From an uncultured Candidatus Saccharibacteria bacterium (lineage in GTDB: Bacteria > Patescibacteriota > Minisyncoccia > Ryanbacterales > HO2-45-13): DNA of 64,000 nucleotides. The translations under genes and the position numbers were made by a program. Shown here piece by piece: positions 4,884 to 52,741 of this stretch (positions are counted from its first letter, which is position 1; every line of letters starts with the position of its first letter). Location of the stretch: contig CAYHBS010000003.1 of assembly GCA_964354975.1 (NCBI GenBank), positions 4,086-68,085 of the forward strand. The letters are read 5' to 3'. The notes beneath the pieces were generated by a model. That model was not told the DNA's origin. It did not search any database and was given only the letters and a program-made list of their open reading frames with translations.

Positions 4884-4912
4884 AGTGTAATGAAATAAAT
4901 AATTGCACAAGC

Positions 4913-9745: not shown

Positions 9746-9827
9746 TGTCTTTCTATTTGACTAGCATTTCGGCGTTACTTGCTACTCCAAAAAATCCAAT
9801 AAATACGGGCCTTATCCTTTCCCGTGA

Positions 9828-9861
9828 CACTTCTTGATATGCGATATTAATGGGAAAGATA
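9828..9861 (-). promoter_or_regulatory. conserved 33-nt motif copy C (CACTTCTTGATATGCGATATTAATGGGAAAGATA)
   Basis: Contains the CYTH stop codon and lies ~80 nt upstream of the pgeF ATG. Confidence 0.3.
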
Positions 9862-18597: not shown

Positions 18598-18657
18598 AGA
18601 TTGCGATTAGTATGCCACGCGCTACCAAAAATGACAAAAAGCGTTATAGTACTCAAT

Positions 18658-21043: not shown

Positions 21044-21094
21044 AGCTACCTCAATGTATACTACTATTATACCTATTGTACGCAGTTCCATCAG

Positions 21095-21128
21095 CATAGA
21101 AAAGAGGGTCGCACATGTGCGACCCTCT
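21095..21128 (-). terminator. perfect-palindrome terminator (AGAGGGTCGCACATGTGCGACCCTCT + TTTTCT on minus strand)
   Basis: An 11-bp perfect stem with a 4-nt loop between the sqdB stop and the NeuB copy-1 start. Confidence 0.5.
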
Positions 21129-34436: not shown

Positions 34437-34437
34437 T

Positions 34438-35598
34438 TTAGTACGTAATACGTTTCTCAAGTAATGCGTGATTGAGTGCAACATGCTTCAGTACTTTGAC
34501 AATTTTTTCCGCCGCCCTTCCGTTGCCGTACACTTTTCCACACCGCTTGAGTGATATGCGAAATTCCTGATCGCGTAATGCAACAAGTAGTGCGTTAAAA
34601 ATTTCCTTTACCGTTGTCCCGGGGGTATCGATCACATTGAAATCTCTTAGTCTCCCTTGCTGTCGTTTTCCAATATTTACAGCGGGCAAACGAAACAACG
34701 GCGCCTCAATAATTCCAGAACTCGAATTGCCAATCAGCGCGCGCGCTTCGCTCATGAGACCCAGAAAATCTGGAGCATCAATATTTTTGTGCACCTGGAA
34801 TTGCGGTTCATGGCTATACATTTGTATCGCACGCACAACTCCTTCATACCCCTGATCGGAGCATGGATACACAATAATCGCACGAGTCCCCATTTCTTTT
34901 ACTGCTTTGAGTGTGCGCCTCATTTGCTCGAACGAAAGTTTTGGTTCCGTATTGACAGAGTGTTGTAATACAATGATGAATTCTTCTTTCGTGCCGAGTT
35001 GATATTTCTTTCGTGCTTCTGCCTCTTTTGTAAACATACGTGCCTTAATCAAATCGAGATGTGTATCACCAACAATATGAATACGCTTCTCCTCTTCACC
35101 CATGCGCAGGATTCTTCGCCCACTGTCATCGGTGGAAGGAAAATGAATGTGGGACATCTTCGTAATGGCGTGACGAAACACTTCGTCGAGGTTACCAGAT
35201 ACATCACCGCCCTGAATGTGAGCAACGGGGATTCCTAAATTATTTGCCGCAATAACCCCAGCAAGCACCTCTCCGCGATCGCCCAAACAAAGAAAAATAT
35301 CTGGACGCAAGCGCTTGAGCACCCGAGAGATTTCAGACAGCCCCTTCCCCAGCGCCACACTTCGCTCAACAGAGCTTCCATCTTTTTGGCCAAGATCGAT
35401 TTTTCCCTTCACGGGAAATAATTTTTCAACTTCAAGCAGCGTTTTTCCAAACTTGTCACTTAAATGCATATCCGTCACGACAAGTTGCAACTCTAACAAT
35501 GGATCTTTCTGAATAAGCTGCATGGTACGCATGAGGGCGCCAAAACCTCCGCGCTTTCCGGAAAGTACACAAATTTTTCTTTTCCGATGAGCAATCAT
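34438..35598 (-). CDS. UDP-N-acetylglucosamine 2-epimerase, hydrolysing (NeuC/LegG type), copy 2
   Basis: VAHIQGGDVSGNLDEVFRHAITKMSHIHFP. Confidence 0.8.
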   Translation of the reverse strand: MIAHRKRKICVLSGKRGGFGALMRTMQLIQKDPLLELQLVVTDMHLSDKFGKTLLEVEKLFPVKGKIDLGQKDGSSVERSVALGKGLSEISRVLKRLRPDIFLCLGDRGEVLAGVIAANNLGIPVAHIQGGDVSGNLDEVFRHAITKMSHIHFPSTDDSGRRILRMGEEEKRIHIVGDTHLDLIKARMFTKEAEARKKYQLGTKEEFIIVLQHSVNTEPKLSFEQMRRTLKAVKEMGTRAIIVYPCSDQGYEGVVRAIQMYSHEPQFQVHKNIDAPDFLGLMSEARALIGNSSSGIIEAPLFRLPAVNIGKRQQGRLRDFNVIDTPGTTVKEIFNALLVALRDQEFRISLKRCGKVYGNGRAAEKIVKVLKHVALNHALLEKRITY

Positions 35599-38716: not shown

Positions 38717-39415
38717 ATGGAACTACACGATATTAAGAATATGGTACGCAAGCAGCCGTGGATATACCACGCGCTGATATTTTTTTCGCGCACAGTATAT
38801 CTCCATGGAATGAGTCAGTGCCAAGCGGTGCGCGCTGCTTTTCCTGCAGGAACAAAGGGAGCGGTGATATTAAATGTCGGATCCGGCTCAAGCCCAAGAA
38901 TGCCCGACATACAAAACATTGATATTGAAAAAAATGAGCACGTTGATATTGTCGCTGATGCCGCGCACCTCCCTTTTGAAAATAACTCGGTCGACATGAT
39001 TCTCTCTGAGTGCCTGTTGGAGCATGTGGCAGATCCGCAGATTGTCGCGAGAGAATTCCAGCGCGTACTTAAACCAGGCGGACACCTCTATCTCATGTTG
39101 CCGTTTGTTTATCCATATCACGCAGCGCCGAACGACTACACTCGATTTACGGTGCAAGGATTACAGGAGCTGTTTTCCAATACAACAAAGATACGATCCG
39201 GCGTGCGATCCGGCCCCATAGCAACGCTCATCATTCAATTCGCGTATGTGGTTGCAATGCTGCTCTCTTTTCGATCGCGCACGCTCTACTCGCTTCTGCT
39301 CAGTATACTGCTGATTGTGCTCTCTCCCCTCAAACTACTTGATTATCTTTCGCTCTTGTTTCCATTTCGAGATGAAGCTGCATCGCAAATATATTTTTTC
39401 GCGAAAAAGCGTTAG
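38717..39415 (+). CDS. class I SAM-dependent methyltransferase (Methyltransf_11)
   Basis: ILNVGSGSS...LKPGGHLYL; it is the only plus-strand gene inside the locus. Confidence 0.65.
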   Translation: MELHDIKNMVRKQPWIYHALIFFSRTVYLHGMSQCQAVRAAFPAGTKGAVILNVGSGSSPRMPDIQNIDIEKNEHVDIVADAAHLPFENNSVDMILSECLLEHVADPQIVAREFQRVLKPGGHLYLMLPFVYPYHAAPNDYTRFTVQGLQELFSNTTKIRSGVRSGPIATLIIQFAYVVAMLLSFRSRTLYSLLLSILLIVLSPLKLLDYLSLLFPFRDEAASQIYFFAKKR

Positions 39416-40317
39416 CGTTTTTGCAGTATCACAAGAATGCGGGAACTTTTCCCAAACATTTTTCCAAGCAGTGTCAGCGGAAGAAAACATGCAAGCGCAG
39501 CGATTCCCAGTTTGTCGAGTAGGCGCTCGGTACGATGCCATTCGTGCACCCGAAGTATTCGCCGAATACTCCCTACCCAATCATTGGGCACTGCGCTATG
39601 AATCACGCGAACCACAGAAAAACCAGCAGCTTCAGCATACTGTTTAATTGTCGCGGGAGTAAAAATATAGTTGTGCCTCGGCGCATCAAAGGAATGCCAG
39701 TATTTTCCAAATAGTTTCCGCTCGAATGAATCTGCATTAGGCACACGAAGGAACACATACCCGCGTGGGCACAGCATCTTCGCTATGCTCTCCAGCGCTA
39801 CACGCGGCGACTGCAAATGCTCGAAAACGTAATTTAATACCACGAGGGACTGTGTCTGCCCTACCGTCGGATTCCATTGATCGAAATCCCCCCTGACAAC
39901 AGCGAGTCCCCGGCGTTGCGCCTCTGCAGCCATATGCGCATCATACTCGAGACCTGAGGCACGGTATGGTCCACGCACTGCTGCTAAATATTCTCCGTTG
40001 GCAGTTCCTATTTCAAAAATGGCTCCTTGCAGACCGAGGTATGAGCGAATCAGCTGTGCGTCCCTACTCCAAAACAATTGTTTAATACGACGACGCAACC
40101 CCTGACTCGCTTGATAGGGAATGTACGATCCATGATAATACCGCCCCATATCAACGGGTCGTTCTGCGAGAAATAATAGTCCGCAGTGCATACACATGCG
40201 GAACGAAAACGCATTAGCGTCAGGTAATTCGAAACACCGAAGATCCTCGTACACAATCCGAGATTCGGTAGACCCACATAAATTGCACATGGCAATGTTA
40301 TTTCTGTTTTCCAACAT
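39412..40317 (-). CDS. SAM-dependent methyltransferase with N-terminal C4 zinc ribbon
   Basis: CNLCGS...CMHCG ribbon, then IFEIGTANGEY motif I. Confidence 0.6.
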   Translation of the reverse strand: MLENRNNIAMCNLCGSTESRIVYEDLRCFELPDANAFSFRMCMHCGLLFLAERPVDMGRYYHGSYIPYQASQGLRRRIKQLFWSRDAQLIRSYLGLQGAIFEIGTANGEYLAAVRGPYRASGLEYDAHMAAEAQRRGLAVVRGDFDQWNPTVGQTQSLVVLNYVFEHLQSPRVALESIAKMLCPRGYVFLRVPNADSFERKLFGKYWHSFDAPRHNYIFTPATIKQYAEAAGFSVVRVIHSAVPNDWVGSIRRILRVHEWHRTERLLDKLGIAALACFLPLTLLGKMFGKSSRILVILQKR

Positions 40318-41395
40318 ATTGCACTGTGCGGATAAAATTTTCCGCTTGCCGTGTAATAGCATATCGCTCTTCAGCAATATTCCACCCGGCCTTTCCCATG
40401 CGCTCGCGTAGTCCCCTGTCCAAGATCAACATACCGATTTTCTCTATCCATTCTGCTTCGGAACTCACCAAAAATCCGTTTTCTCCATCACGTACCACTG
40501 TACTATTCAAGCCAATGTGATCGGCAACTATCGGAATTCCGACACTCATATATTGAATCATTTTATAGCCCAGGCGCCCCTTATTAAACGGAGCGTCATC
40601 AAGTGGCATCAGTCCAATGTCCATCCGCTGCAGGAGTGCGACTTCAGATTCCTCGCTCCATGGAAGATGCTCATGCGGTATTCCTTTGGCGCGAAATTGT
40701 AAAGCCGCTCCAACCGTCAGCAATTGTGCTTGGGGAAAGCGTGTTCCAATAGCGCGAAACACCGGCTGGAGTTGCTCGAGTAATGCGGTAGTGGGCGTAC
40801 CTCCAATCCAGCCGAGCGTGACTGTTGAGGAATCATGTGACGGCCCTGGGTGCACGCGCCCCGTATCAATGGGCGCAGTGATGAACGATACATCATGCCC
40901 ATACGTTCTCGCTTCCGCGGCATGATATTCATTTTCTACGATGATGTGCGCGGCATGTCGCATCATATTGCGACAGAGGCGCGCTTGATACCTCAACCCA
41001 AAACTACGCACGATACCATCCTCCCAAAATGCATTTAGTTCATAAATTGTATCTTCAATTTCATAGATAATGCGCGGATTGCGTTGGCGCAGTATCCAAT
41101 ACAATATGCGCGGAAATACTTCTCGCTGAATGACGACCGTATCATATGATGGCGCCTGCCACGCGATCATACATTTTTTTATATATGCAGCTATTATCCC
41201 AAGAAGAAAATTTCCATCACGGCGGATGCGCGAAACTGACCGCATGCGATTTTGAATGTGATAGAAATTGTCTGAGTATATAGCAATATGCGTATAAACA
41301 ATTCCTGCGCGATCAAAATATGGGAGAAATTGCAGAATCTGCACACGACTACTTCCTCCCACTGATGAAAACTGGGTAACAAATAATACGTTCAT
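40298..41395 (-). CDS. glycosyltransferase family 4 (GT-B, retaining)
   Basis: The C-terminal domain carries the EX7E-type region MIQYMSVGIPIVADHIGLNSTVVRDGENGFLV. Confidence 0.75.
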   Translation of the reverse strand: MNVLFVTQFSSVGGSSRVQILQFLPYFDRAGIVYTHIAIYSDNFYHIQNRMRSVSRIRRDGNFLLGIIAAYIKKCMIAWQAPSYDTVVIQREVFPRILYWILRQRNPRIIYEIEDTIYELNAFWEDGIVRSFGLRYQARLCRNMMRHAAHIIVENEYHAAEARTYGHDVSFITAPIDTGRVHPGPSHDSSTVTLGWIGGTPTTALLEQLQPVFRAIGTRFPQAQLLTVGAALQFRAKGIPHEHLPWSEESEVALLQRMDIGLMPLDDAPFNKGRLGYKMIQYMSVGIPIVADHIGLNSTVVRDGENGFLVSSEAEWIEKIGMLILDRGLRERMGKAGWNIAEERYAITRQAENFIRTVQYVGKQK

Positions 41396-42492
41396 TTGGT
41401 TATGATGGTATTGCGCAATTGTGCAACAACGTACTCTTGCTGCTCGGCAGTGATATGAGGAAACATAGGGAGAGAGAGTAATCGTTCAGCTGATGCGTCT
41501 GTCACGGGACACGCGTCCGCACACTCTCCGAAGAAAGGTTGTCGATAGACAGGAATAGGATAGTGAATTTCTGTCTGCACACCTTTTGCGAGCAGTGCGG
41601 CCTTCACTGCGTCTCTCCGATTAACGTGTATAACGTATAAATGATACACATGCGTCCCATTCGGCAACCCTTGAAGGATTTCACCAACTCCCGCATCCGC
41701 CAGCAATGTACTATATCGTTGCGCTGCCACCTTCCGCATATTGGTCCATTCCTTAAGAAACGGGATTTTCAGAGACAGTACAATCGCCTGCATTGGATCA
41801 AGTCGCATATTAAAGCCAAGTATTTCGTGGTTATTTTTTTTCACACTCCCTAGGTTACGGAGTCGTATCACTCGTTCAGCGAGATCTGCACGATGTGTCA
41901 CCACCGCTCCTGCATCGCCAAAAGCTCCGAGATTTTTTGTAGGATAGAAACTAAATGCGGCAATATCTCCCCACGCGCCCGTATGTTTTCCTGCGTACAT
42001 CGCACCATGAGACTGCGCACAATCTTCGACAAGAAATAATTTGTGTGCGTCTGCAATGCTGCGCACTGATTGAATATCACAGGGTTGTCCAAATAAATGC
42101 ACTACAAGAATTGCCTTGGTTTTATGCGTGATGCAACCCGCAATGAGTTCTGGGTTCATGGTGAGCGTATTTGGTACAATATCCACAAAGCGTGGTGTAG
42201 CTCCCGTTCGGAGAATGGCAACAACAGATGCATTGTATGCATTCCCCTGCGTAATGACTTCGTCTCCCGGACCTATACCGAGCGCAAGGAGCGAAAGATA
42301 CAGAGCGTCTGATCCGTTACTCACGCCGATAGCGTGCGCAATCTCAAGATACTCCGCCCATTCCTGCTCAAACTGCGCGACCTCCTCGGTTAAAATAAAA
42401 CGATTTTTTTCGAGCAACGACGTGACGCGTTCGAGATACACATCTTTTACCGCAGCCGTTGTCTGAGAAAGGTCAATAAATGGAACGTTCAT
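41392..42492 (-). CDS. DegT/DnrJ/EryC1/StrS-family PLP-dependent sugar aminotransferase
   Basis: VVHLFGQPCD...LVEDCAQSHGA...FSFYPTKNLGAFGDAGAV, with the Lys in TKNLG. Confidence 0.8.
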   Translation of the reverse strand: MNVPFIDLSQTTAAVKDVYLERVTSLLEKNRFILTEEVAQFEQEWAEYLEIAHAIGVSNGSDALYLSLLALGIGPGDEVITQGNAYNASVVAILRTGATPRFVDIVPNTLTMNPELIAGCITHKTKAILVVHLFGQPCDIQSVRSIADAHKLFLVEDCAQSHGAMYAGKHTGAWGDIAAFSFYPTKNLGAFGDAGAVVTHRADLAERVIRLRNLGSVKKNNHEILGFNMRLDPMQAIVLSLKIPFLKEWTNMRKVAAQRYSTLLADAGVGEILQGLPNGTHVYHLYVIHVNRRDAVKAALLAKGVQTEIHYPIPVYRQPFFGECADACPVTDASAERLLSLPMFPHITAEQQEYVVAQLRNTIITK

Positions 42493-43199
42493 GGTAACTG
42501 GGAAAAGAGATCGGTATTGAGACTCGTATCACGGGGCACCCAGTTGGGCCTTGGTATTGTTTCAATATCTGCCTTTGTGCGCTTTGCGTATTCTACCAAT
42601 GTTCCGCGCATTCCACCTACATTCATCACTCCAGTCGCTGATGAACGCGTGGCACGGAGAATGAGTGGAGCGACTTCATCAACATATAATTTAGAATTGT
42701 ATTGATCTGCATACACTTTGTCCCACGGAAATGGGCGTGGACCGAAACTTAGTCGCAGTATCAACGCATTGTTGAGTAGTCTCGCTGCACATTCGCCTCC
42801 AAGTTTTGACCACGCATATTTAGAGGGCGGGAGCACGGGTTCATTCTCTTTATGCGGTCCGCCTCCCGTATATACATAGTCCGTGGAAATATACACCATG
42901 CGACACCCAAGACGGTAACACGCGAGCGCGACGTTTGCAGTGCCAATAATGTTCACGGAAAGTCCGGGCGTGGGATTTTCCTCGTGTTGCGGTGGATGAG
43001 TAGCAGCGGCAACATGTAACACCACATCCGGACGCACCTCACTCATATACGCAAAAAGTTGCTCAAATTGAGTGATGTCACATTCCGTGCTTGGTGGCGC
43101 AATCAACGAAGCATCCAATGATTGCAGTGCGGCGCCAAGCATGCCGGATCCACCGGTCAGAAGAATTTTCTGTTGTGCTAAATTAGTGTGTGGGTTCAT
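42489..43199 (-). CDS. dTDP-4-dehydrorhamnose reductase (RmlD)-like NDP-sugar 4-ketoreductase
   Basis: KILLTGGSGMLG...VVLHVAAAT...RMVYISTDYVYTGG...YAWSKLGGE. Confidence 0.65.
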   Translation of the reverse strand: MNPHTNLAQQKILLTGGSGMLGAALQSLDASLIAPPSTECDITQFEQLFAYMSEVRPDVVLHVAAATHPPQHEENPTPGLSVNIIGTANVALACYRLGCRMVYISTDYVYTGGGPHKENEPVLPPSKYAWSKLGGECAARLLNNALILRLSFGPRPFPWDKVYADQYNSKLYVDEVAPLILRATRSSATGVMNVGGMRGTLVEYAKRTKADIETIPRPNWVPRDTSLNTDLFSQLP

Positions 43200-43863
43200 G
43201 AGCGCGTAAGTGCGCAAGTCCTTCTTCGATCGAAGCAATCACAAATGCAGGGTCTCCTGCTTCATAACGCTCTCGATAATACATGATTCGGGCGCATTCT
43301 GCCATTAATCTTCCGAGTCGCGTTGTCTGTTCTGCGTGCTCGGTATGAATGAGCCCATAGACCGTAATGGGGGTGTACCAATCGATGTGTCGAACGGTTG
43401 TAGGCATCAGATGTAGGTTACTTCCACGCGCCAACAACACACCAAGATCCGTGAGAAATGCCCGACCGATGTGTTGTGGCACCGACACGACAACTGCTCT
43501 CCGCACCTGTAGTTTTTCGGCGAGCACAATAAATCCCTGCGCCTCTTCAAGGGTATGGCGAGCGGGTGTCACACGATGAATACAATCTTCAGAAATACGT
43601 ACCTGCTGCATCAGCGCCTGTTTCCATGTCGCGTACCCCGGACTCCCATTGCCGTCATACAATGGCTCTCCGTTGAGTATGATGTGCTTCGCATTCGTTC
43701 TGCGATATACTTCCGCTACTGTACCGAGTAGTTCCTCAAAAAGATCCCCCCAGCCATGTACAAACACTGCGTCTGCTTCTAATAGTGAAACGATGGACAA
43801 TGCATGTGAAAATTCGCTCCATTTTCTTATGTGATCTGCGAGAGATGCTTTCGATGCGTTCAT
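43183..43863 (-). CDS. hypothetical protein (possible DUF218/YdcF-like)
   Basis: 226-aa ORF embedded in the deoxysugar module with no confident motif. Confidence 0.3.
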   Translation of the reverse strand: MNASKASLADHIRKWSEFSHALSIVSLLEADAVFVHGWGDLFEELLGTVAEVYRRTNAKHIILNGEPLYDGNGSPGYATWKQALMQQVRISEDCIHRVTPARHTLEEAQGFIVLAEKLQVRRAVVVSVPQHIGRAFLTDLGVLLARGSNLHLMPTTVRHIDWYTPITVYGLIHTEHAEQTTRLGRLMAECARIMYYRERYEAGDPAFVIASIEEGLAHLRAHEPTH

Positions 43864-43872
43864 ATTAACGCG

Positions 43873-45051
43873 TTACAACATTCGTGGTTGCGGCACATGT
43901 GTCAGCCATTTTCCCCCGCGATCACGAAATGCCTGTTGCGTCGCATTAATTTCCTCCAGATGATTCCATGCAAATAATACTGCAACATCAACATCTCCAA
44001 AGCGCTCCTGTGGAACGATAGGGATATGCACTCCGGGATAATATTTTCCCTGCTTAATAGGAGTATTGTCCGTAATAAATGGAATAAGATCTGGTCCAAT
44101 ACCACAATAATTAGCGACAATCACTCCCTTTGAACTTGCACCAAATCCACACATTTTTTTATTCTCTGATTTCAGAGCGGTTAACATGCGAACGAGCTCA
44201 CTCTTTGAGCGCTCCACATTTTCAACAAATTCACGCAATTTTTGATCAAGGTGTTGTTCTTTCTGCACCCATGGATCAACAGTCTGCTGTACTGGATGCG
44301 TAGACTGGTGCCCAACATACATGCGGAGCTCCCCTCCATGCACTGAAATATGCTCTGCATGGAACACATGATATCCCAGGGGACGAAAAAGATTATTAAT
44401 GAACGCAACGGTAAAGTACCAAATATGTTCATCATAAATCTGGTCATAGGATGTCTTTTCATAGATATCAATAAAATAGGGATCTTCAAACACAAATACC
44501 CCATTGGTGCCGATCATGCTCGCAATAAGTTCTGCATACTCTTCAATATTTTCAACGTGACAACTGACATTTGCAGCAAATACCACGTCTACGTTTCCAA
44601 TATCAGTGATTTCTGTGACCACGGCGGGACTTAAAAACTCACTGATCACACGATGCCCTTTTGATCGCGAAACGTTTGCAACGTTACCAGACGGCTCCAC
44701 TCCTACTGCGGTTACTCCAAGCGCTTCCCATGCTTCAAGCATCACGCCATCGTTTGATCCAATCTCCACGACAATACCGCCGCGCACAAAGGAGCGTAGG
44801 TGGCTTGCCGTTTCAGAAAAATGCTTAATCATGTACCGTGACGTGGAGGAAAAAAATGCGTATTGATCATGGAACATTTTTTCACGTGGGACGGTGTGTA
44901 TGAGACCAATCGCGGCGTTGCTTGGATCATACCCAAGCACCATGCGATAAAAAAACTCCTGCGGAAACTCCGCTGGACTCAAAAATGCGTTCGCAATGGG
45001 CATGTTTCCAAAGTCCAATACTTCACTCAATGAAATCTTCATACACGGCAT
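43873..45051 (-). CDS. NDP-hexose C-methyltransferase family (TylCIII/EvaC/NovU-like; Methyltransf_13+14)
   Basis: LDFGNMPIANAFL and YAFFSSTS (the YxYxSSxS family motif), SAM motif VVEIGSNDG and a C-terminal C-MTase domain. The N-terminal zinc-ribbon Cys residues are absent. Confidence 0.6.
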   Translation of the reverse strand: MPCMKISLSEVLDFGNMPIANAFLSPAEFPQEFFYRMVLGYDPSNAAIGLIHTVPREKMFHDQYAFFSSTSRYMIKHFSETASHLRSFVRGGIVVEIGSNDGVMLEAWEALGVTAVGVEPSGNVANVSRSKGHRVISEFLSPAVVTEITDIGNVDVVFAANVSCHVENIEEYAELIASMIGTNGVFVFEDPYFIDIYEKTSYDQIYDEHIWYFTVAFINNLFRPLGYHVFHAEHISVHGGELRMYVGHQSTHPVQQTVDPWVQKEQHLDQKLREFVENVERSKSELVRMLTALKSENKKMCGFGASSKGVIVANYCGIGPDLIPFITDNTPIKQGKYYPGVHIPIVPQERFGDVDVAVLFAWNHLEEINATQQAFRDRGGKWLTHVPQPRML

Positions 45052-45086
45052 TCTATCAGATTGTGCGCCCCGTGCACAGTGGAATA

Positions 45087-46040
45087 TTACAATGCGCGCT
45101 TCCCTGACAGATGCGCCAGCGTATCGCGTACCGCACGATCGAGATCTCCGTGTGGTTTAAAGCCGTGACGCTCAAATTTGCTCCCGTCAATTTCATATGA
45201 AAGCTGATTCATTATTTTTGATGCGACAAATTTTACTTCCGCAGTTGGCATGTGTCGCTGAATCGTCTCTACCACCTGGCGCACCGTTAAATTACTCGTG
45301 ATGACATTGTACGTCTCACCATCGTAAAGTGCGTTATCTATAATCATCATAATTGCATGAATGGCGTCTTCTAAATCTACATACGGGCGGCGTTGCTCCC
45401 ATGCTGTTTCCCACACCGTCAGCGGATGTCCGAATGCAGACTGCCAGATAAATTTATTGACCGCAGTATGAAATCGCATGCCAATAGACCATCCAAATAT
45501 GGTGCCAAGTCGCAGAATGATCACGCGTAATCCTTTGACGTGGAGTGCGCGCACATATTCCTCGCCGGACAATTTTGTCGCTGCGTATGGACTCTGTGGT
45601 TGTAGTTCCTTACACGTTTCATCAACACGGGCATTCTGCGAACCATAAATGCTCGTGGTAGAAGGAAAAATAAGCGCTGCATCATGTTCGAGGCATGCGT
45701 CAGCAATGCGACGAAATCCAAATGTATTGACGCGTTCAGTTTCTTCATTATGTTCAGCGCTCGATTCTGCATCCGTTCGCGCCGCAAGATGAATGAGCAC
45801 ACGAGCACGCGAAAGAATATGTTGAAGCTCCATCTCACAAATATCTCCGTAGACAAACTCGTAGTTTCCCTCAGAGGGTAGATCAAACAGCGAAGCGAAT
45901 CGCTGGGTAGCCAAATTGTCGATGAGAATAATAGGATCGGAGGTATGTGTGCCCAGCGTACGAATGAGTGCGGACCCGATGTGTCCCAACGCGCCTGTCA
46001 CTACAATGGCGTTTTTTTTTCTATTATTATTGCGATGCAT
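45087..46040 (-). CDS. NAD-dependent epimerase/dehydratase (extended SDR)
   Basis: AIVVTGALGHIGS and YAATKLSGE (YxxxK). Confidence 0.65.
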   Translation of the reverse strand: MHRNNNRKKNAIVVTGALGHIGSALIRTLGTHTSDPIILIDNLATQRFASLFDLPSEGNYEFVYGDICEMELQHILSRARVLIHLAARTDAESSAEHNEETERVNTFGFRRIADACLEHDAALIFPSTTSIYGSQNARVDETCKELQPQSPYAATKLSGEEYVRALHVKGLRVIILRLGTIFGWSIGMRFHTAVNKFIWQSAFGHPLTVWETAWEQRRPYVDLEDAIHAIMMIIDNALYDGETYNVITSNLTVRQVVETIQRHMPTAEVKFVASKIMNQLSYEIDGSKFERHGFKPHGDLDRAVRDTLAHLSGKRAL

Positions 46041-46995
46041 ACTTGTGCTTTGTGTGTAAAAGTCCCTCGCGCATTCCAAATGCAGGAGCCCACTCTGTCA
46101 GCTGTGGTAAAAGTGTTGAGGATATCCGTACACTATGTACATCAATTTTTTTACGAAGTTCCGGCCACGCTACAAATTCTACAGTCGTATCAAATATTTC
46201 CGCGATAGCAGCGGCAATGTTGGCCACAGCATAATGTTCTTGGTGCACGGCAAAGAATGTTTTTCCATAAAATAGCGGGTTGCCAATGGTACGGATGAGT
46301 ATATCGCACGCGTCTACAATATAGAGCACGTTACGCAACTGAGCTCCGTCACCGAATACGCGAAGTCGTTTTCCCGCGCGTGCTTCTTCAATGAAATAGT
46401 TCATAAATCCAAACGCCGGATCTTTCTTTCCATATGGTCCAAACAAATTCGCGAATCGAATAGTGGTGGTTGGAATATCAAACGCATTCGAATAAATATA
46501 GCTGTATTTTTCGGCGATACCCTTATGCGCCGAATAAATATCAAGCGGATGTTCCGGATGTGCCTCGTCGATTGGCTCATACTGTGCGCGGCCAATCAAC
46601 GTGCTGGAGGAAGGATAGATCACCTGCGCGGTGGGATGCACTTCGCGCACCAACTGCAGTAATTGCAAGTGCCCAAGTGCATTAATGCGCGCGTCGAGTA
46701 GTGGCTCTTGCATAGAAAAAGGATGCGATGTCTGAGCTGCAAGATTGATGATGCTATCGTGGTCGCGCACCAATGGACGTATGACTTCTGCGTCACAATA
46801 ATCCCCTTGCACAAACTCCACACGAGTAGAGAGTCCTCGAACGCGGGTAGCGTCACTTTGGAATTTTGGATCAAGCGAATCCAACACCGTCAACTTTTCC
46901 GGCGTATGCATCAGAAGATGTTCAACTAAATTTGTCCCAAAAAAACCGGCACCCCCGATGACTAAAATTCGACGAGACTTTAGCATATCCGTCAT
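46027..46995 (-). CDS. NAD-dependent epimerase/dehydratase (extended SDR, 4,6-dehydratase/4-epimerase-like)
   Basis: ILVIGGAGFFGTNL and YSAHKGIAE (YxxxK). Confidence 0.65.
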   Translation of the reverse strand: MTDMLKSRRILVIGGAGFFGTNLVEHLLMHTPEKLTVLDSLDPKFQSDATRVRGLSTRVEFVQGDYCDAEVIRPLVRDHDSIINLAAQTSHPFSMQEPLLDARINALGHLQLLQLVREVHPTAQVIYPSSSTLIGRAQYEPIDEAHPEHPLDIYSAHKGIAEKYSYIYSNAFDIPTTTIRFANLFGPYGKKDPAFGFMNYFIEEARAGKRLRVFGDGAQLRNVLYIVDACDILIRTIGNPLFYGKTFFAVHQEHYAVANIAAAIAEIFDTTVEFVAWPELRKKIDVHSVRISSTLLPQLTEWAPAFGMREGLLHTKHKYASQ

Positions 46996-46998
46996 ATG

Positions 46999-47439
46999 CT
47001 ACCAAGGAAAATTAATCATAGGATCATCGTATGGAATATGTTCAATAGGGGGACGCGCAGGATCATATGCTTTTCCTGCGTGATATAAAATACCCATTGG
47101 AGTATCTCCTAATGACTGATACCCGTGCGCGACACCGGGAGGAATAGCATACGCTTCGAGTACACTTCCACTCACCTGACACTCATACTGCTCTCCAAAT
47201 GTTGAAGAGTTCTTGCGCGCATCATAAAAAACCAATCGCGCGGTACCTTTGATGACTACCCACATTTCCCAGTACGTGTCGTGTATGTGAAATCCCTTAA
47301 CCACCCCGGGATGAGTTTCGCTGTAGCTCGTTTGTTTGATCTCGTGGAACGTGGGCTCCCCCTCCTTGATCAGCTCGGCAAAAAAACCACGCGCATCTTC
47401 GTGCTTCTGCACTGATTTATGGGTGAGGTCGTTGATCAT
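46999..47439 (-). CDS. dTDP-4-dehydrorhamnose 3,5-epimerase (RmlC)-like cupin
   Basis: DARGFFAEL...VKGFHIH...WVVIKGTARLVFYD...IPPGVAHGYQSL. Confidence 0.6.
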   Translation of the reverse strand: MINDLTHKSVQKHEDARGFFAELIKEGEPTFHEIKQTSYSETHPGVVKGFHIHDTYWEMWVVIKGTARLVFYDARKNSSTFGEQYECQVSGSVLEAYAIPPGVAHGYQSLGDTPMGILYHAGKAYDPARPPIEHIPYDDPMINFPW

Positions 47440-48373
47440 GAATGATGTGAGCGATTTGGTACGGTGCTTTCCGTTGCGACTCATAATAGGTGCGCATCAT
47501 AATTTCAGCAAGCACGCCCATAACCACGAGTTGCACACCGACGATCACAAGTAGTGCAGATAAAATCGGCAACGGAGTTGAAACAAACGTGTGCAGTCCC
47601 GAAAGTCTAAAATAAATAGCTACACTCCCTGCGATTCCCCCAAGTAGTAACGACACAAATCCAATACCACCAAAAAAGTGCATAGGACGATTCAGATACC
47701 GCGTGAGAAATTTAATCAACAATAAATCCAAAATCACCCGATAGGTGCGCCCAACACCATAATTACTCGATCCGCTCATGCGCTCTCTATAATGTACAGG
47801 CACTTCGGTCACTTTTGCTCCCTGCCAAAATGCGTACGCGGGAATAAATCGATGCATCTCTCCGTAGAGACCAATACCTCCAACGATGGATCTCCGATAT
47901 GCTTTGAGTGTGCACCCATAATCGTGCAACTTGAGCCCCGCAATGCGAGAGATAATTTCATTTGCAATAAGCGACGGGAGTTTGCGTGTTATCCATTTAT
48001 TTCTCCAGCGGTACCGGCGCCAGCCGGAAACGACATCATACCCCTCTGTAATAAGCGCAAGTAATTTTGGAATATCTGAAGGATCATTTTCCAAGTCACT
48101 GTCGATCGTAACCACAATGTCCCCTGACGAATGAGTGATCCCAGCTGACAATGCGGCAGTTTGTCCAAAATTGCGCGTAAATACAATCACCTTCACACGA
48201 CTGTCTGCGGTAGCAATATGTCGCAACGTTGTAAGACTTCCGTCACGTGATCCGTCATCAACCGCAACAAATTCAACCGCATCTCCGAAATGTCCGGATA
48301 CCGAAACCAACTCTCGATAGAGTTGTTCGAGATTTTTCTCTTCGTTATATACGGGGAAGATAATGGAAATCAT
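47417..48373 (-). CDS. GT2 polyprenyl-phosphate glycosyltransferase (DPM1/GtrB/ArnC-like) with C-terminal TM helices
   Basis: ISIIFPVYNEE..VAVDDGSRDGS...DSDLEND (DxD), then 2 C-terminal TM helices. Confidence 0.75.
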   Translation of the reverse strand: MISIIFPVYNEEKNLEQLYRELVSVSGHFGDAVEFVAVDDGSRDGSLTTLRHIATADSRVKVIVFTRNFGQTAALSAGITHSSGDIVVTIDSDLENDPSDIPKLLALITEGYDVVSGWRRYRWRNKWITRKLPSLIANEIISRIAGLKLHDYGCTLKAYRRSIVGGIGLYGEMHRFIPAYAFWQGAKVTEVPVHYRERMSGSSNYGVGRTYRVILDLLLIKFLTRYLNRPMHFFGGIGFVSLLLGGIAGSVAIYFRLSGLHTFVSTPLPILSALLVIVGVQLVVMGVLAEIMMRTYYESQRKAPYQIAHIIHDQRPHP

Positions 48374-49971
48374 GGCTTACGCTTGTATATAAGGAGGGTA
48401 CCTCCATCATTGCCCTCAGTGTATTTTCTTGGGTATACATTTTTAACTGTCTCAACAAGCTGGAATTGATTATTGAGCATAGCACGAAACGTAGCAATGC
48501 GCGCATCGGTATCTTCCCCCTCCCCCCAAAATGGGTTCCTGCGCAGTCCCTCGAACCCGGTTTCTTTATGTATTAACACCACATCGGCGTCATGTGCGAG
48601 CCAGTTATTCAGTATGTCCCAGTTATAAAACCCAATGCTGCGGATATAAGCGGTGTCTTCAGAATTTACGAAAAGGAAGTTCCGCTGCAGCAGCGGCGCA
48701 AACACTCTCCGATCAGCGAGAAAAGCGTGGTAAAGCGAGTCATCAAATGTTAAAATATTATCTTCTTTTTCCGTTAGCGCAGCAACATGCTCCGCACCAA
48801 TACGTACACGCTCAAGATCTGAAATATCATGTGGGTTCGCGATAATATCCTTTCGGTACTGCAATGTTCCATTTAACAGAATCACCGCGCACAACAATAT
48901 CATCGCGACGCTACGTTCAATCCGTATTGCTCGGTAGCTCACTACAATGAACAAGATCACAAACGGCATGAAGTAATTCGCATAATACACATTCCCTTCG
49001 AGCTTCCAATAAAAATAATGTGCGCCCATCATGCTCATTGCGTACATCCAAATGAGCAACGGGATCTTGTGATCCCGCGTATATGCGCTCCGGCGCATGC
49101 CATGTTCACGAATTATCAACACCGTTGCGACGAAGAACAGCAGCAAAAATCCATAATACTCACGCACAAAATCACTTAGGTTAGTGATAAACGAATCAAA
49201 GGTCTGCGCGAGTGTGGAAGCTTGCAACTGACTCATGATGCCTACGCTGACAATCGGACTCACTACGTCGCTCAGCGCAACGGTGGGGTTATAACGAATT
49301 ATGGGAATATATCCGAGCACAACAACAACGATAACTATGGCTGCCCACAAAGCAACGCTGCGGGCGTGGTACCTAGCCACTATCTGAAACAACAAATATG
49401 CTAGGAGTGCGGGTAAAAAATTGATACGCGAAAGCAATAGGAGTCCGAAGAGTAATCCGTTGAGCAGTGCTTTGTAGTTACGACGAATATCAATCAGTTC
49501 CACTACGACAGTGAGCATGAGTAGCAATGTTGCGAGCGCATACATCGTGACAGTGATGTAATTGGATACAAGTAGTACATTCGAAACAAGTAGCGCAGCA
49601 GCAGCCGCGGCCGCGCGTTTACCAGAAAGCCGGGCAGCTACCCACAACATCACTGCATACAGCATCACAAAAAAACAAGCAGCCAGTATGCGCCCCGCGT
49701 AGATGCTTGGACCAAACAAATACTGCACATACCCAAACGTCGGAATCACAAACGGAGGGTATGACATAATACTGTCCACATATGGCACAAACTCCCCTGT
49801 CAGTATGAGATAGCTCTTGAACGACGCGAGTATTTCATCTATCCATGTTTCGCGATAGACGAGGAGCACTGCAGACTCAATCATCAGCACTGCGCTTGCT
49901 ACGATGATAATGATTTCATCGATGTACTTGTGAAGTAAAACGAACCTCTGAGTGTGTCGTGCCACATTCAT
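48370..49971 (-). CDS. GT-C fold polytopic membrane glycosyltransferase (ArnT/PMT-like)
   Basis: 533 aa with ≥11 TM helices. It is immediately downstream of, and translationally coupled to, the GT2 polyprenyl-P sugar synthase. Confidence 0.5.
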   Translation of the reverse strand: MNVARHTQRFVLLHKYIDEIIIIVASAVLMIESAVLLVYRETWIDEILASFKSYLILTGEFVPYVDSIMSYPPFVIPTFGYVQYLFGPSIYAGRILAACFFVMLYAVMLWVAARLSGKRAAAAAAALLVSNVLLVSNYITVTMYALATLLLMLTVVVELIDIRRNYKALLNGLLFGLLLLSRINFLPALLAYLLFQIVARYHARSVALWAAIVIVVVVLGYIPIIRYNPTVALSDVVSPIVSVGIMSQLQASTLAQTFDSFITNLSDFVREYYGFLLLFFVATVLIIREHGMRRSAYTRDHKIPLLIWMYAMSMMGAHYFYWKLEGNVYYANYFMPFVILFIVVSYRAIRIERSVAMILLCAVILLNGTLQYRKDIIANPHDISDLERVRIGAEHVAALTEKEDNILTFDDSLYHAFLADRRVFAPLLQRNFLFVNSEDTAYIRSIGFYNWDILNNWLAHDADVVLIHKETGFEGLRRNPFWGEGEDTDARIATFRAMLNNQFQLVETVKNVYPRKYTEGNDGGTLLIYKRKP

Positions 49972-51365
49972 ACCGCAGAAAATAAGATATCAACGATACG
50001 CTTTCCGCTGTGGCGATCTAATGGACCGCAGACCGTATCTCTTAATTCCTTCCGTTTATCGCCGTCACTACTACCATCGCGTACATAGGTTTGAAGCGCG
50101 ACGAGCAAATCATCAAAGTTTAGAGCACGGTGCATTGCCCCAGAAAGTAATACTTCTTTAAAGTGATCCATTTGTTCAAAGCGCCGAATTGATTTGCGAT
50201 ACGGAAGCGCATGATACCCATCAAATGGAGTTGCAATGATTGGACGATCGTAGAGCGCCGCTTCAAGCACCATGGTCGTATATACCGCGAGCACAACATC
50301 CGCGTGGCGCAGGATATTCGTAAAATAGATGCTCCTGTCAAGATCTCCCCAAAATTCTTTCTCATAAATACGTACTCGAGGGTGATCTTTAAAGGTAGAA
50401 AATTTAATCTCATCAATTGTGCGATCTTTTGTCCTCCCGCTGATATACGGTCGAATGACAATGTGCATCTTCTCCCCTAATTTCCCTTCATCAATCCATC
50501 TCAGCATCGTCTCAATAATGTCTGGTTCGTGTGGACAATATGCGCTCCCCGATATGTAGAGAATATATTTCGACCCGTCGGGCAAACCTAATTGTTGAAT
50601 CAGTGAAGCACGCGGTACCGCATACGATTCGTTAAGCATAAAATCGAAGTGTGGGTATCCCACAACCCGTATTGCTGACTGATCGTATGATTGGTGTTTT
50701 ATCGCAGCTCTGCCCACTTGCGCACTCGGCACTAATAATTCGTCGACATGAAATGGTAAATAATATTTATCGAGATGATCCCAACCTGCGGGCATACCGA
50801 TGGTACGCACGCCTCGTCTATACGCTTCTGCAAGTATGTGTATATCGAATAGCCCATAAATATGAGTGGAAAAAACGAGATCTGGTCGATACGTATCAAA
50901 CAATTCTTGAAAGGGTCGCGCCGCATTAACGCGAATAAACATCTGTGGCACAAAAATATTCCGAATCCATTGAGATTTTCCAAACGTCAACGCAATACAC
51001 TGCTTGATGGGAGCAAGATATCGCTTGCCTCCTGCGGCCGGTTCATCTGGTCGAGTCCCCATTGTGGCCATGAGCGCCGTCGTATGGGTGTAAAGCAGGT
51101 AAGAATAAAAAAAATGAAATAGTTTTTCGCGCAACCGCTTGGGATATTTTACTTCAGCGTACGTGACGATACATCCCGCCGCTGTAGCTGTGGTAAAAAA
51201 TTGTTCATACTTTCCTTTTCTGCCCTCCTCAAGGAGAAACACTACGCGCACCTGCTGGGAATGCTCCTTCACATGCACTACAAGTAAATCAAGAAAGCTC
51301 CCCGGGAAAAAACAAAGGTTACGAAACGCTGCAGAAGACGCAATAGGGATAAAAATTGTTTTCAT
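49968..51365 (-). CDS. TagF-like GT-B family protein, paralog 3
   Basis: GVRTIGMPAGWDHL; GYPHFDFM; VVLAVYTTMVLEAALYDRPIIATPFDG. The start is placed at MKTIFIP (ATG 51365, 4-nt overlap with the upstream stop). Confidence 0.45.
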   Translation of the reverse strand: MKTIFIPIASSAAFRNLCFFPGSFLDLLVVHVKEHSQQVRVVFLLEEGRKGKYEQFFTTATAAGCIVTYAEVKYPKRLREKLFHFFYSYLLYTHTTALMATMGTRPDEPAAGGKRYLAPIKQCIALTFGKSQWIRNIFVPQMFIRVNAARPFQELFDTYRPDLVFSTHIYGLFDIHILAEAYRRGVRTIGMPAGWDHLDKYYLPFHVDELLVPSAQVGRAAIKHQSYDQSAIRVVGYPHFDFMLNESYAVPRASLIQQLGLPDGSKYILYISGSAYCPHEPDIIETMLRWIDEGKLGEKMHIVIRPYISGRTKDRTIDEIKFSTFKDHPRVRIYEKEFWGDLDRSIYFTNILRHADVVLAVYTTMVLEAALYDRPIIATPFDGYHALPYRKSIRRFEQMDHFKEVLLSGAMHRALNFDDLLVALQTYVRDGSSDGDKRKELRDTVCGPLDRHSGKRIVDILFSAV

Positions 51366-52741
51366 AGAGTATGTATGATTGCACGTGCAACACGTTCGGC
51401 GGACTTGCCGTCTGTCATATAACATTGCTCTTGAACAATACGCGCCCTCCCCTCACGCAGCATTGCAGGAACCTGCAATGCATCGTTGAGCGCAGTAACC
51501 ATTTCGTCGGCAGAATGCACAATAGCAATACCATTCAGTGTACGGATCTTTGCAAGATGATTCCAGTCAAAAAAACGTCGCGCAGAATTCCAGTATGGCC
51601 GCCGCAAAGCGCCATCAAACGCAACGCCGACAATCGGCTTATCCAATATTGCTGCTTCAATAAAAAATGTGGAATACATGGTGACAACGACATCGGCGTA
51701 GATAAGACTATGATGCAAAAAATTTACTGCCTCGTCTGTAAATTCCCAATTATGCACAGTGTCAGCAACGTGCCCAACAGCTGATACAACAAAAAATCGA
51801 TATGCGGACCGCATGCGTTCCATGCGTTTTTCAGAGAAATCGTAGCGAGGATATGGACGAATAAGTACGTTGACGGACTCGCTGAGTGCGTGCGCCTCAA
51901 GAGATTCATGTAAGATGCGCAAAATATCAAACTCGATATCAAGCGCTGCTTTCCCTGAAAATGCGTACAAAATGGTTTTTTTACTTGGATCTGCGCCGAT
52001 ACTGTTGAGAAATTCTTCTCGCGACATTGTCACTCGGCCCGAAAAATACCGATCATATTGGGGAATGCCCGTGATACACACGCGATTCCTTGGAAAATCG
52101 CCGTATGTTGCAGCAAGTTCAAGAATTTCCGGTGTATGTACGAGCAGCGTATCCGGATGCACACGAATGATCGTCTTACTATATAGATTATCCCAGCTTA
52201 ATATCATACCCACTACTCTCACGCCTCTCCTCCGCGCAACTTTGGCAAGAATATGATCTTCGCTATGAATGACATTGGAACAATACACGACATCAGGATT
52301 GTAGCGATCCAGCAGCGAATCAAATGTATGATCGGAGAAGCGAGCATAACTCCAACGAATCATTCTTCTCCACCATGAAAATTGGCCTAAACAACCACAC
52401 ATCACTTCCACGGGATACAAGAGCAACGTACGAATCCCATTCCACGAAAAAGAAAAATTACTTTGAAATAGATAAGTGCGTTGCATGCGCGCTGTTCTAC
52501 TATGAATACTTGCGCGTTCAATGAATTGAAAGAATGTCTCCACCACGGGTCGTTGCAATTCTGGCAATACATCGAAGGTGATCGATGACTCGGGAAATTC
52601 CAAAGCGTAATACTCTACTTTTTCCTTTGGCACTAACACCACTAATCGATCCCCCGGTTGCTCAATGATAATCCTAGCTGCGTCAGTGCGCAGAAAATTT
52701 CTTACAAAAAATCCGTCGTGTATTGCCGTCAAAATTGTCAT
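51362..52741 (-). CDS. TagF-like GT-B family protein, paralog 4
   Basis: GVRVVGMILSWDNL; GIPQYDRY; VVVTMYSTFFIEAAILDKPIVGVAFDG; QEQC. Confidence 0.45.
   Translation of the reverse strand: MTILTAIHDGFFVRNFLRTDAARIIIEQPGDRLVVLVPKEKVEYYALEFPESSITFDVLPELQRPVVETFFQFIERASIHSRTARMQRTYLFQSNFSFSWNGIRTLLLYPVEVMCGCLGQFSWWRRMIRWSYARFSDHTFDSLLDRYNPDVVYCSNVIHSEDHILAKVARRRGVRVVGMILSWDNLYSKTIIRVHPDTLLVHTPEILELAATYGDFPRNRVCITGIPQYDRYFSGRVTMSREEFLNSIGADPSKKTILYAFSGKAALDIEFDILRILHESLEAHALSESVNVLIRPYPRYDFSEKRMERMRSAYRFFVVSAVGHVADTVHNWEFTDEAVNFLHHSLIYADVVVTMYSTFFIEAAILDKPIVGVAFDGALRRPYWNSARRFFDWNHLAKIRTLNGIAIVHSADEMVTALNDALQVPAMLREGRARIVQEQCYMTDGKSAERVARAIIHTL

Follow-up and report, generated by a model that had tools for sequence, protein, structure and literature searches.

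A seven-gene module for a predicted C-methyl-branched amino sugar in a surface-glycan locus of an uncultured Patescibacteria bacterium

The subject of this work is a module of seven genes that may direct the synthesis of a branched amino sugar. It lies within 64,000 nucleotides of DNA from an uncultured member of the Patescibacteria (GenBank assembly GCA_964354975.1, contig CAYHBS010000003.1, positions 4,086 to 68,085), the whole of which we call the window and number from its first letter. The window is a long, near-unbroken array of minus-strand genes of about 47% G+C, tRNA and Rfam scans found neither tRNA nor Rfam features in it, and the contig has also been found in groundwater assemblies (Logan SRR32696699; ENA 'Hain_H52'). 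The seven open reading frames (ORFs) of the module are contiguous on the minus strand from 41392 to 47484, neighbours touching or overlapping by a few bases, and a pair of predicted glycosyltransferases (GT) adjoins them. In the list below, NDP stands for nucleoside diphosphate, SDR for short-chain dehydrogenase/reductase and C-MT for C-methyltransferase.

41392..42492, minus strand: DegT/DesV/QdtB-type pyridoxal phosphate (PLP) aminotransferase ("DegT1"), predicted to act at C3 (PF01041, E=1.4e-105)
42489..43238, minus strand: short RmlD-like SDR of 236-249 aa, predicted terminal C4-ketoreductase (PF04321, E=1.8e-28)
43183..43863, minus strand: 226-aa protein of probable YdcF/DUF218 fold, putative C-MT-linked accessory (fold match)
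43873..45051, minus strand: TcaB9/KijD1/EvaC-type NDP-hexose C-MT (PF08484, PF13489, PF08421)
45087..46079, minus strand: extended SDR, here SDR5, predicted NDP-sugar C4 dehydrogenase (PF01370, E=2e-37)
46027..46995, minus strand: extended SDR, here SDR6, predicted supplier of the C3-keto substrate for DegT (PF01370, E=1.6e-40)
46999..47484, minus strand: small RmlC/EvaD-like cupin, predicted 5- (or 3,5-) epimerase (PF00908, 74.9 bits)
47417..48373, minus strand: ArnC/GtrB-like GT2, predicted polyprenyl-phosphate transferase (PF00535, E=2.4e-33)
48370..49971, minus strand: GT-C (ArnT/PMT)-like polytopic membrane protein of 533 aa (weak PF13231 PMT_2)

A first-pass annotation, made from the letters of the window, had described seven consecutive genes of this kind. 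All seven ORFs are present, with family matches far beyond chance, and the Pfam hidden Markov models (HMMs) that it had proposed as checks (PF01041, PF08421/PF08484, PF04321 and PF00908) each found their family, PF04321 in the N-terminal half of its protein only. Its coordinates were right as well, the end that it gave, 47439, being an internal ATG start of the cupin in the public gene call (146 aa); the same call starts the short SDR at 43199, the C-MT at 45042 (389 aa) and SDR5 at 46040 (317 aa).

The C-MT has the three-domain architecture of TylCIII, EvaC and TcaB9 (PF08421, 32.4 bits against a cut-off of 31.3; PF13489, 54.1 bits; PF08484, 149.6 bits), and it aligns end to end with the PDB sequences of KijD1 (5t64, E=4.9e-98) and TcaB9 (3ndi, 6e-89), MtmC (4rv9) scoring lower at 2e-61. 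Identity to KijD1 is 41.7% for the window protein and about 51% for relatives outside the Patescibacteria. Five residues of TcaB9 that were probed in its mutant structures and that we take to be catalytic (Tyr76, His181, Tyr222, Glu224 and His225) are all present in the window C-MT, and the catalytic Tyr, Tyr, Glu and His are invariant across 102 relatives. The full-length match and the five residues mark a genuine TcaB9/KijD1/EvaC-type enzyme rather than a generic methyltransferase, as the first-pass annotation had said, although the motif that it quoted, YxYxSSxS, is actually YxFxSSxS (YAFFSSTS), the second Tyr being Phe in the window and in most relatives. It had also correctly noted the loss of the zinc-ribbon cysteines, whose four positions are Met, Met, Asp and Asn in the window protein. 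All four are replaced in 30 of the 30 Patescibacteria C-MTs examined and retained in 18 of 18 DPANN C-MTs and in most other bacterial copies. Since the zinc site of TcaB9 is structural and remote from catalysis, we still assign the window C-MT to the TcaB9-type family, and by homology we predict that it methylates C3 of an NDP-4-keto sugar. One related Patescibacteria contig (L109, GCA_034680565.1) carries two C-MT paralogs, at 2096-3358 and 8827-9999; the one of 420 aa has a strong PF08421 match and adjoins a DegT gene, and the one of 390 aa is followed by a YdcF-like gene.

The DegT aminotransferase call was equally sound (PF01041, 353.9 bits), and the Schiff-base (PLP) lysine can be read from the motif SFYPTKNLG. 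Its top PDB matches are all C3 aminotransferases (7b0d, 324 bits; DesV 2oga, 298; QdtB 3frk, 273; WbpE, 249), the C3 set as a whole, which includes WlaRG-type enzymes and NtdA, spanning 189-324 bits as against 167 bits at most for C4 enzymes. Likewise, the window protein scores 526 bits with an HMM of its own family, DegT1, and 129 bits with that of DegT2, a C4-type family found in related loci. DegT is therefore predicted to aminate C3, not C4, which points to a 3-amino-3-C-methyl sugar; noviose and mycarose, both offered earlier as analogues, are poor ones, as neither has an amino group.

The two large SDRs had been described as dehydratase/epimerases. Both are indeed extended SDRs (PF01370), but they are not dehydratases, for the Thr-Asp-Glu residues are absent: the motifs read STTSIYG...YAATK in SDR5 and SSSTLIG...YSAHK in SDR6, neither with the Asp/Glu dehydratase pair. 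The two proteins score 116.7 and 122.9 bits with the dTDP-glucose 4,6-dehydratase model TIGR01181 (cut-off 365; dTDP, deoxythymidine diphosphate) and only 101-111 bits with an RmlB HMM. Nor do they group with the dehydratases of the Pse and Leg pathways, scoring 25.1 and 27.4 bits with PseB (TIGR03589, cut-off 407.75) and 49.8 and 111.9 bits with LegB (TIGR04180, cut-off 475).

When compared with the PDB as family profiles, the two SDRs behaved differently. The best match of SDR5 was 6vo6, over its full length and at 152.4 bits, followed by entries at 130 and 117 bits, and the two share a TxFGxSxxMR...VNxF block. This entry we take to be Cj1427, which would make SDR5 closest, by a moderate margin, to the C4-dehydrogenase of that name. 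For SDR6 no family was discriminated, Pal, RmlB, tyvelose 2-epimerase, GalE and PelX all matching at 157-174 bits; Pal offers an example of an SDR that shifts a hydride from one carbon to another. The idea that SDR6 is the equivalent of RmlB was considered and dropped, since it has none of the dehydratase residues and SDR6-type genes occur together with true RmlB orthologs (at least 230 bits). One SDR6-type ORF elsewhere (L097, 11283-13211) is 643 aa long, about twice the normal length, which suggests a fusion.

The first-pass statement that the window has no RmlA-type nucleotidyltransferase was borne out, an RmlA HMM built from 24 sequences finding no match at E<=10; family HMMs also found no true RmlB and no FdtA in the window, the FdtA HMM having no match at E<=10.

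We compared the module with its relatives by calling ORFs in 108 loci and scoring them with the proteins of the window and with those of one related locus, L004. A scan of genome contigs with a single protein gave 23 loci, mostly of distant DPANN archaea, and an alignment-based scan of metagenomes was far richer. The module had been thought unusual in a minimal bacterium; it proves to be common in Patescibacteria, DPANN archaea and other uncultured bacteria. Relatives of the C-MT form more than 120 clusters (at 90% identity) that are 58-67% identical to it and come from organisms named Parcubacteria, Kaiserbacteria, Azambacteria, Liptonbacteria and similar; others, about 40% identical, occur in Pace-, Woese- and Nanoarchaeota, and relatives at 42-47% identity are found in many unbinned metagenome contigs, where at least 575 stretches match. 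In practically every locus whose flanks are long enough, whichever of the three lineages it belongs to, an SDR5 ortholog (230-500 bits) is found next to the C-MT (60 related loci of Patescibacteria, other bacteria and DPANN), the small cupin is universal, and a DegT ortholog (200-550 bits) is found in most loci. In 15 of 18 DPANN loci the C-MT carries the cupin as a C-terminal fusion; fusion ORFs of about 560-630 aa are found in L009, L011-L014, L016-L020, L022-L025, L027 and L028, of which L014 is labelled Omnitrophota and yet has the archaeal-type arrangement.

The variation around this core is informative as to SDR6. The sole known job of FdtA is to convert an NDP-4-keto-6-deoxyhexose into the 3-keto sugar for amination of the QdtB/FdtB type. 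Among loci that have both SDR5 and DegT, 21 have SDR6 only, 14 have FdtA only, none has both and none has neither (Fisher p=4e-10); this exclusivity held when the loci were scanned again with HMMs, and the 14 FdtA proteins are bona fide (PF05523, 123-142 bits). In a tree of DegT the SDR6- and FdtA-types interleave, within the Patescibacteria clade as well as within the clade of other bacteria, so the swap must have happened repeatedly. In DPANN the slot is taken by a third, distinct SDR (motif AGTRDQYG), which is fused to DegT in L012 (4448-6493) and L016 (1780-4257) and to SDR5 in L009 (5515-7548). Two candidate assignments in DPANN did not survive re-scoring: of the SDRs considered as SDR6 orthologs, one is the terminal reductase SDRx and the other is the third SDR, and the FdtA HMM matches to the C-MT fusions are cross-talk from the cupin (14-32 bits, against 98-150 for the small-cupin HMM).

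A second exchange concerns the terminal SDR. In Patescibacteria this is the short RmlD-like protein, and elsewhere it is a canonical SDR, SDRx. A terminal SDR without DegT2 occurs in 41 loci, DegT2 without a terminal SDR in nine (L039, L059, L062, L068, L083, L085, L090, L093 and L094), both in none and neither in 11 (p=1e-5). The best relatives of DegT2 are all C4 enzymes, namely perosamine synthetase (240 bits), ArnB and the LegC/PseC/WecE models. RmlA and RmlB adjoin 9 of 17 FdtA-type loci as against 3 of 25 SDR6-type loci (p=0.006), and they also adjoin most DPANN loci. A few well-covered loci (such as L055 and L044) are core-only, with SDR5, C-MT, cupin and reductase and without DegT, FdtA or SDR6. 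At the other extreme, L056 is a compact operon of the order CMT-DegT-cupin-SDRx-SDR6-SDR5-GT2-RmlA-RmlB, and L004 (Parcubacteria Gr01-1014_8) is a compact operon with the same proposed activities, in which no N-acyltransferase was called; an 88-aa ORF with a GIY-YIG nuclease domain (12954-13220) stands there between FdtA and DegT.

That the cupin is RmlC-like was confirmed at superfamily level by PF00908 (74.9 bits, cut-off 27) and by an RmlC-like HMM (196 bits), and the FdtA HMM does not match it; with TIGR01221 it remains below the RmlC equivalog cut-off (54 bits against 155.75). Its best PDB matches are RmlC structures and the C-terminal cupin of Cap5F, and it keeps the catalytic His and the C-terminal Tyr pair of RmlC, the RmlC Lys being Val. 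From these features it is predicted to be a 5- (or 3,5-) epimerase of a 4-keto intermediate. In the short SDR, an RmlD-like 4-ketoreductase in the first-pass annotation, PF04321 covers only the N-terminal half of about 165 aa (residues 24-164 align), and the score with the rmlD equivalog model TIGR01214 is 103.5 bits, below the cut-off of 224. The best PDB matches of this protein are the RmlD structures 3sc6 and 5u9c, with MAT2B, a regulatory RmlD-like subunit, also among the matches. We found 17 orthologs in Patescibacteria. The window protein keeps YxxxK (KYAWSK) and has the triad, and the C-terminal half of the family is very strongly conserved (LRLSFGPxPFPWxKVYxxQYNSKLYVDE).

The 226-aa protein encoded between the short SDR and the C-MT had been called unknown, and it has no match in Pfam, NCBIfam or PDB sequences, but its fold is now placed, as a probable assignment, in YdcF/DUF218. 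Three of its 21 homolog clusters carry PF02698, and a Foldseek search with its AlphaFold model (pLDDT 92.6) gave a single significant match, E. coli YdcF (3ca8, E=5e-6, probability 1.00, TM-score 0.45-0.55), a structure deposited as 'S-adenosyl-L-methionine utilizing enzyme'. The gene immediately follows that of the C-MT in the window, L029, L053, L109 (10001-10642) and L110 (10001-10666), its start always a few bases from the C-MT stop, and it is confined to a subset of Patescibacteria loci. It is best explained as a lineage-specific accessory of the C-MT.

From these family memberships, conserved residues, co-occurrence statistics and fusions we infer a route in which the substrates, regiochemistry, order of steps, carrier nucleotide and 6-deoxy status are predictions. 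We propose tentatively, as a call that falls slightly short of even, that the module makes an NDP-activated 3-amino-3-C-methyl hexose for a surface glycan, a sugar of the (epi)vancosamine type with the 2-hydroxyl kept. The earlier idea of an antibiotic-style route to a branched amino sugar, minus the 2,3-dehydratase, holds in outline. Given the strict alternation of SDR6 with FdtA and the SDR-DegT fusions, SDR6 is most economically seen as the supplier of the C3 ketone for DegT. In the first step SDR6 would provide a C3-keto sugar, the job of the 3,4-ketoisomerase FdtA in sister loci. DegT would then transaminate C3. Amination at C3 leaves a 4-hydroxyl, and a 4-ketone is required for the deprotonation of C3 by an enzyme of the TcaB9 type, a need that SDR5 fits: as a Cj1427-like dehydrogenase it would make, or remake, the C4 ketone, the order of this step and of the transamination not being fixed. 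That SDR5 is kept in loci without the amino branch is understandable, because the cassette there would start from a finished NDP-sugar.

The TcaB9/KijD1-type C-MT would next methylate C3 with S-adenosyl-L-methionine (SAM). Its fusion to the cupin places epimerisation next to methylation, and since C3 is quaternary after methylation only C5 could still be epimerised, as with EvaD; the cupin would thus act on the 4-keto intermediate most likely at C5. The exchange of the terminal SDR for a C4-type aminotransferase implies that the last intermediate is a 4-keto sugar, and the short RmlD-like SDR would be its reductase at C4. The product would be an NDP-3-amino-3-C-methyl-3(,6-di)deoxyhexose, in which the 2-hydroxyl should be kept because there is no 2,3-dehydratase, and in the DegT2 loci its 3,4-diamino counterpart, a kijanose-like skeleton outside the actinomycetes. 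The DPANN fusions of C-MT to cupin, of the third SDR to DegT and of SDR5 to the third SDR tie the steps of such a pathway together, and the carrier nucleotide is probably dTDP, as many relatives have RmlA and RmlB next to the module.

A more general claim can be made, although we regard it as doubtful: that an unrecognised and widespread cassette for late-stage C-methylation decorates the surfaces of ultra-small symbionts, with SDR6 as a new kind of enzyme, an SDR on an epimerase scaffold that delivers 3-keto sugars in place of the FdtA/QdtA cupins. It could do so through a redox-neutral shift of the keto group from C4 to C3 on bound NAD, or through dehydrogenation at C3. The cassette would consist of a Cj1427-like C4 dehydrogenase, a TcaB9-type C-MT, a cupin epimerase and either a C4 reductase or a C4 aminotransferase, and its predicted products are 3-amino-3-C-methyl or 3,4-diamino-3-C-methyl sugars, which until now are known from the antibiotics of actinomycetes only.

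Several observations weigh against the proposed pathway. The module has no known product, and all of the regiochemistry is assigned by homology. We know of no SDR-type enzyme that forms a 3-keto nucleotide sugar, and the PDB comparison found no characterised close relative of SDR6. The likeness of SDR5 to Cj1427 is by a moderate margin (152 against 130 bits) and depends on 6vo6 being Cj1427. In most of the 17 short-SDR orthologs (L004, L006, L008, L030-L055) the catalytic Tyr is Phe, so that this family may use non-canonical catalysis or may not be a reductase. The core-only loci imply that the C-MT core can act on a non-amino sugar, in which case the amino branch could serve a separate sugar, and the C-MTs of amino and non-amino loci show no obvious distinction. 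Finally, the absence of RmlA and RmlB from the window and their rarity near SDR6-type loci mean that the starting sugar may not be dTDP-4-keto-6-deoxyglucose.

The last two points lead to two alternatives that were considered alongside the proposed pathway. In one, which we think rather unlikely, the genes make two sugars of the same glycan: SDR5, C-MT, cupin and short SDR would produce a 3-C-methyl (6-deoxy)hexose without an amino group, akin to evalose or virenose, and SDR6 with DegT a 3-amino-3-deoxy sugar akin to Fuc3N, Qui3N or kanosamine. The loci without DegT, FdtA and SDR6 (L055, L044 and L043) are consistent with this, as are the facts that FdtA and a C3 aminotransferase are a known self-sufficient pair and that the amino genes form a separate block in some Patescibacteria loci (L004, L031 and L034). 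In most loci, however, DegT and the C-MT are immediate neighbours and the amino genes are scattered among those of the core (CMT-DegT-cupin-SDRx-SDR6/FdtA-SDR5), and the fusions of the third SDR to SDR5 and to DegT join the two halves. Moreover, L004 lacks the N-acyltransferase normally present in Fuc3N and Qui3N pathways, the C-MT is nearest to enzymes that act on 3-amino substrates, and a C4-type aminotransferase can occupy the slot of the reductase, as in the kijanose route. In the other alternative the same cassette acts on a hexose that is not 6-deoxygenated: SDR6 would oxidise C3 of a finished NDP-hexose, on uridine or guanosine diphosphate (UDP or GDP), and the product would be a 3-amino-3-C-methyl-3-deoxyhexose that keeps its 6-hydroxyl. 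This would account for the lack of RmlA and RmlB in the 64 kb and for their being less often adjacent to SDR6-type than to FdtA-type loci, and it agrees with the presence of GDP- and UDP-sugar 4-epimerases among the structures nearest SDR6 and with the substrate of Cj1427, a sugar that keeps its hydroxyls (PMC10680097). We nonetheless judge it distinctly unlikely, for L056, L076 and most DPANN loci hold SDR6-like or third SDRs together with RmlA/RmlB in one operon, RmlA and RmlB are often encoded elsewhere in a genome, and the closest relatives of the C-MT use dTDP-6-deoxy sugars.

A route in the actinomycete style was also weighed, with one of the large SDRs as the 4,6-dehydratase, followed by C-MT and cupin and then by DegT acting at C4, to give a 4-amino-3-C-methyl sugar of the kansosamine or sibirosamine type. 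Sugars of this type occur in mycobacterial and actinomycete products, and TIGR01181 is nominally the top NCBIfam model for both SDRs, but both match it at a third of its cut-off and lack the Asp/Glu pair, and many relatives have true RmlB orthologs beside the module as well as SDR5 and SDR6. DegT falls among the C3 enzymes, a distinct C4-type enzyme, DegT2, being recruited where amination at C4 is implied, and C4 amination would leave the strict linkage of DegT with FdtA or SDR6 unexplained; such a route is very unlikely. Given that the window holds three NeuB, three cytidine monophosphate (CMP)-transferase and two NeuC-like genes, and that PseC and LegC are among the NCBIfam matches of DegT, the module might instead supply precursors to Pse/Leg-type nonulosonic acid pathways encoded downstream of it within the locus. 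This we consider extremely improbable: DegT scores 213 bits with PseC (cut-off 423) and 172 with LegC (cut-off 420), the SDRs reach 25-112 bits against cut-offs of 408-475, nonulosonic acid genes accompany the module in only about 7 of some 100 related loci, and a C-methyltransferase has no place in the known nonulosonic acid routes.

A likely route of export for the branched amino sugar that we propose is encoded immediately beside the module, by the ArnC/ArnT-like pair that the first-pass annotation overlooked. The GT2 matches the ArnC model NF007986 over its full length (residues 2-313 of 318) with 190 bits (cut-off 529), and C-terminal transmembrane helices can be read from its sequence; the GT-C protein has a PF13231 PMT_2 match that is below the cut-off (E=1.7e-4) and no NCBIfam match. 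Three independent Patescibacteria loci, namely the window, L039 and L053, have both genes immediately upstream of the module (GT-C orthologs in the latter two, 420-430 bits), and in other lineages a GT2 is also beside the module. Such a pair suggests transfer to an extracytoplasmic acceptor by way of polyprenyl phosphate, in which the GT2 would load the sugar onto the lipid and the GT-C protein would pass it to the acceptor outside the membrane.

The module and the transfer pair lie within a single surface-glycan locus of about 47 kb on one strand (16384-63179), a very large share of a Patescibacteria genome that is presumably small. It includes genes for a Wzy_C-type protein, a Wzx-like flippase, about a dozen GT4 proteins, at least six SAM methyltransferases and two TagF-like glycerophosphotransferases (49968-52741), together with a Bac_transf initiating transferase on the plus strand (18601-19986). 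Two of the methyltransferases are just downstream of the module, at 39412-40377, with an N-terminal four-cysteine motif (CNLCGS...CMHCG), and at 38717-39415 on the opposite strand, and either could N- or O-methylate the product sugar. The following genes suggest that up to three nonulosonic or ulosonic acid routes are encoded between 19988 and 35598.

19988-21097, 24249-25361 and 28697-30256: three NeuB-family synthases, the last of 519 aa with a C-terminal cupin domain
22379-23089, 27957-28700 and 33735-34484: three CMP-sugar cytidylyltransferases
23086-24252 and 34438-35598: two NeuC-like 2-epimerases

The locus is flanked by two large predicted surface proteins, one of 1016 aa with a CBM_4_9 carbohydrate-binding domain (1860-4910) and one with PKD and lamin-tail (LTD) domains that runs off the end of the window (63148-63969); an LTD protein also flanks L004.

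The nearest known counterparts of the proposed pathway are the EvaA-E route to epivancosamine in chloroeremomycin and the kijanose and tetronitrose routes, which likewise combine C3 amination, C3 methylation by a TcaB9-family enzyme, epimerisation by an RmlC-like protein and reduction at C4. In the kijanose route KijD1 is the C3-methyltransferase (TcaB9 in that to tetronitrose), KijD2 the C3 aminotransferase and KijD7 the C4 aminotransferase, and in nine sister loci of the module the last step would similarly be a C4 amination. Unlike these routes the module has no 2,3-dehydratase (EvaA or KijB1), and it would obtain its 3-keto and 4-keto groups through FdtA or SDR6 plus the universal SDR5; it also differs in that the Patescibacteria C-MTs lack the zinc site and that it belongs to a surface-glycan locus of uncultured organisms rather than to a secondary-metabolite cluster. 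The amination branch resembles the dTDP-Fuc3NAc and dTDP-Qui3NAc pathways, as sister loci have RmlA, RmlB, an FdtA of PF05523 and an ortholog of the window DegT that is a QdtB/DesV-like aminotransferase. Here, by contrast, SDR6 takes the place of FdtA, there is no N-acetyl- or formyltransferase, and SDR5, C-MT, cupin and reductase are predicted to go on to modify the amino sugar. As to transfer, the TM-tailed (transmembrane-tailed) GT2 and the polytopic GT-C-like protein beside an amino-sugar pathway recall ArnC and ArnT of the Arn system for Ara4N and Gtr-type systems, but the GT2 is below the ArnC equivalog cut-off and there is neither a formyltransferase nor a deformylase. Patescibacteria have no outer membrane.

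For the core of the module a parallel is the tailoring of heptose in Campylobacter jejuni, where the C4 dehydrogenase Cj1427 acts first and is followed by a cupin epimerase and a C4 reductase (PMC10680097). As with these capsular heptose enzymes (Cj1427, the cupin C3/C5 epimerase Cj1430 and the C4 reductase Cj1428), a finished NDP-sugar would be oxidised at C4, epimerised by an RmlC-like cupin and reduced at C4; the module differs in having a C-MT and usually an amination branch between oxidation and reduction, and in a substrate other than GDP-heptose. The sole literature precedent that we found for a TylCIII-family C-MT in the synthesis of a cell-surface glycan is CBU_0691, proposed in silico for the virenose (6-deoxy-3-C-methylgulose) of the O-antigen of Coxiella burnetii (PMC3539893), in a route that differs in being GDP/Gmd-based, in having no aminotransferase and in having no partners of the SDR5 and SDR6 kinds. 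We found no literature that links TcaB9/KijD1-type enzymes to Patescibacteria or DPANN.

Branched amino sugars of the class to which vancosamine and kijanose belong count as a hallmark of secondary metabolism in actinomycetes. Were the genes to make two separate sugars, the window would hold a glycan locus of a rather ordinary kind, in which the C-methyl sugar is uncommon. The proposed pathway, on the other hand, raises several claims that can be tested: that an SDR replaces the cupin-type 3,4-ketoisomerase, that a Cj1427-like dehydrogenase readies a finished NDP-sugar for C-methylation, and that reduction and amination can stand in for each other at the terminal 4-keto step. Its enzymes could also serve in glycodiversification, giving 2-hydroxylated analogues of antibiotic sugars. 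The module, widely distributed and uncharacterised, may include one new enzyme activity, that of SDR6, and its distribution suggests that sugars chemically similar to those of the antibiotics are routine surface components of Patescibacteria and DPANN archaea. Attachment to host cells is the presumed way of life of these organisms, so that the surface glycan that would carry such a sugar is likely to be their contact interface.

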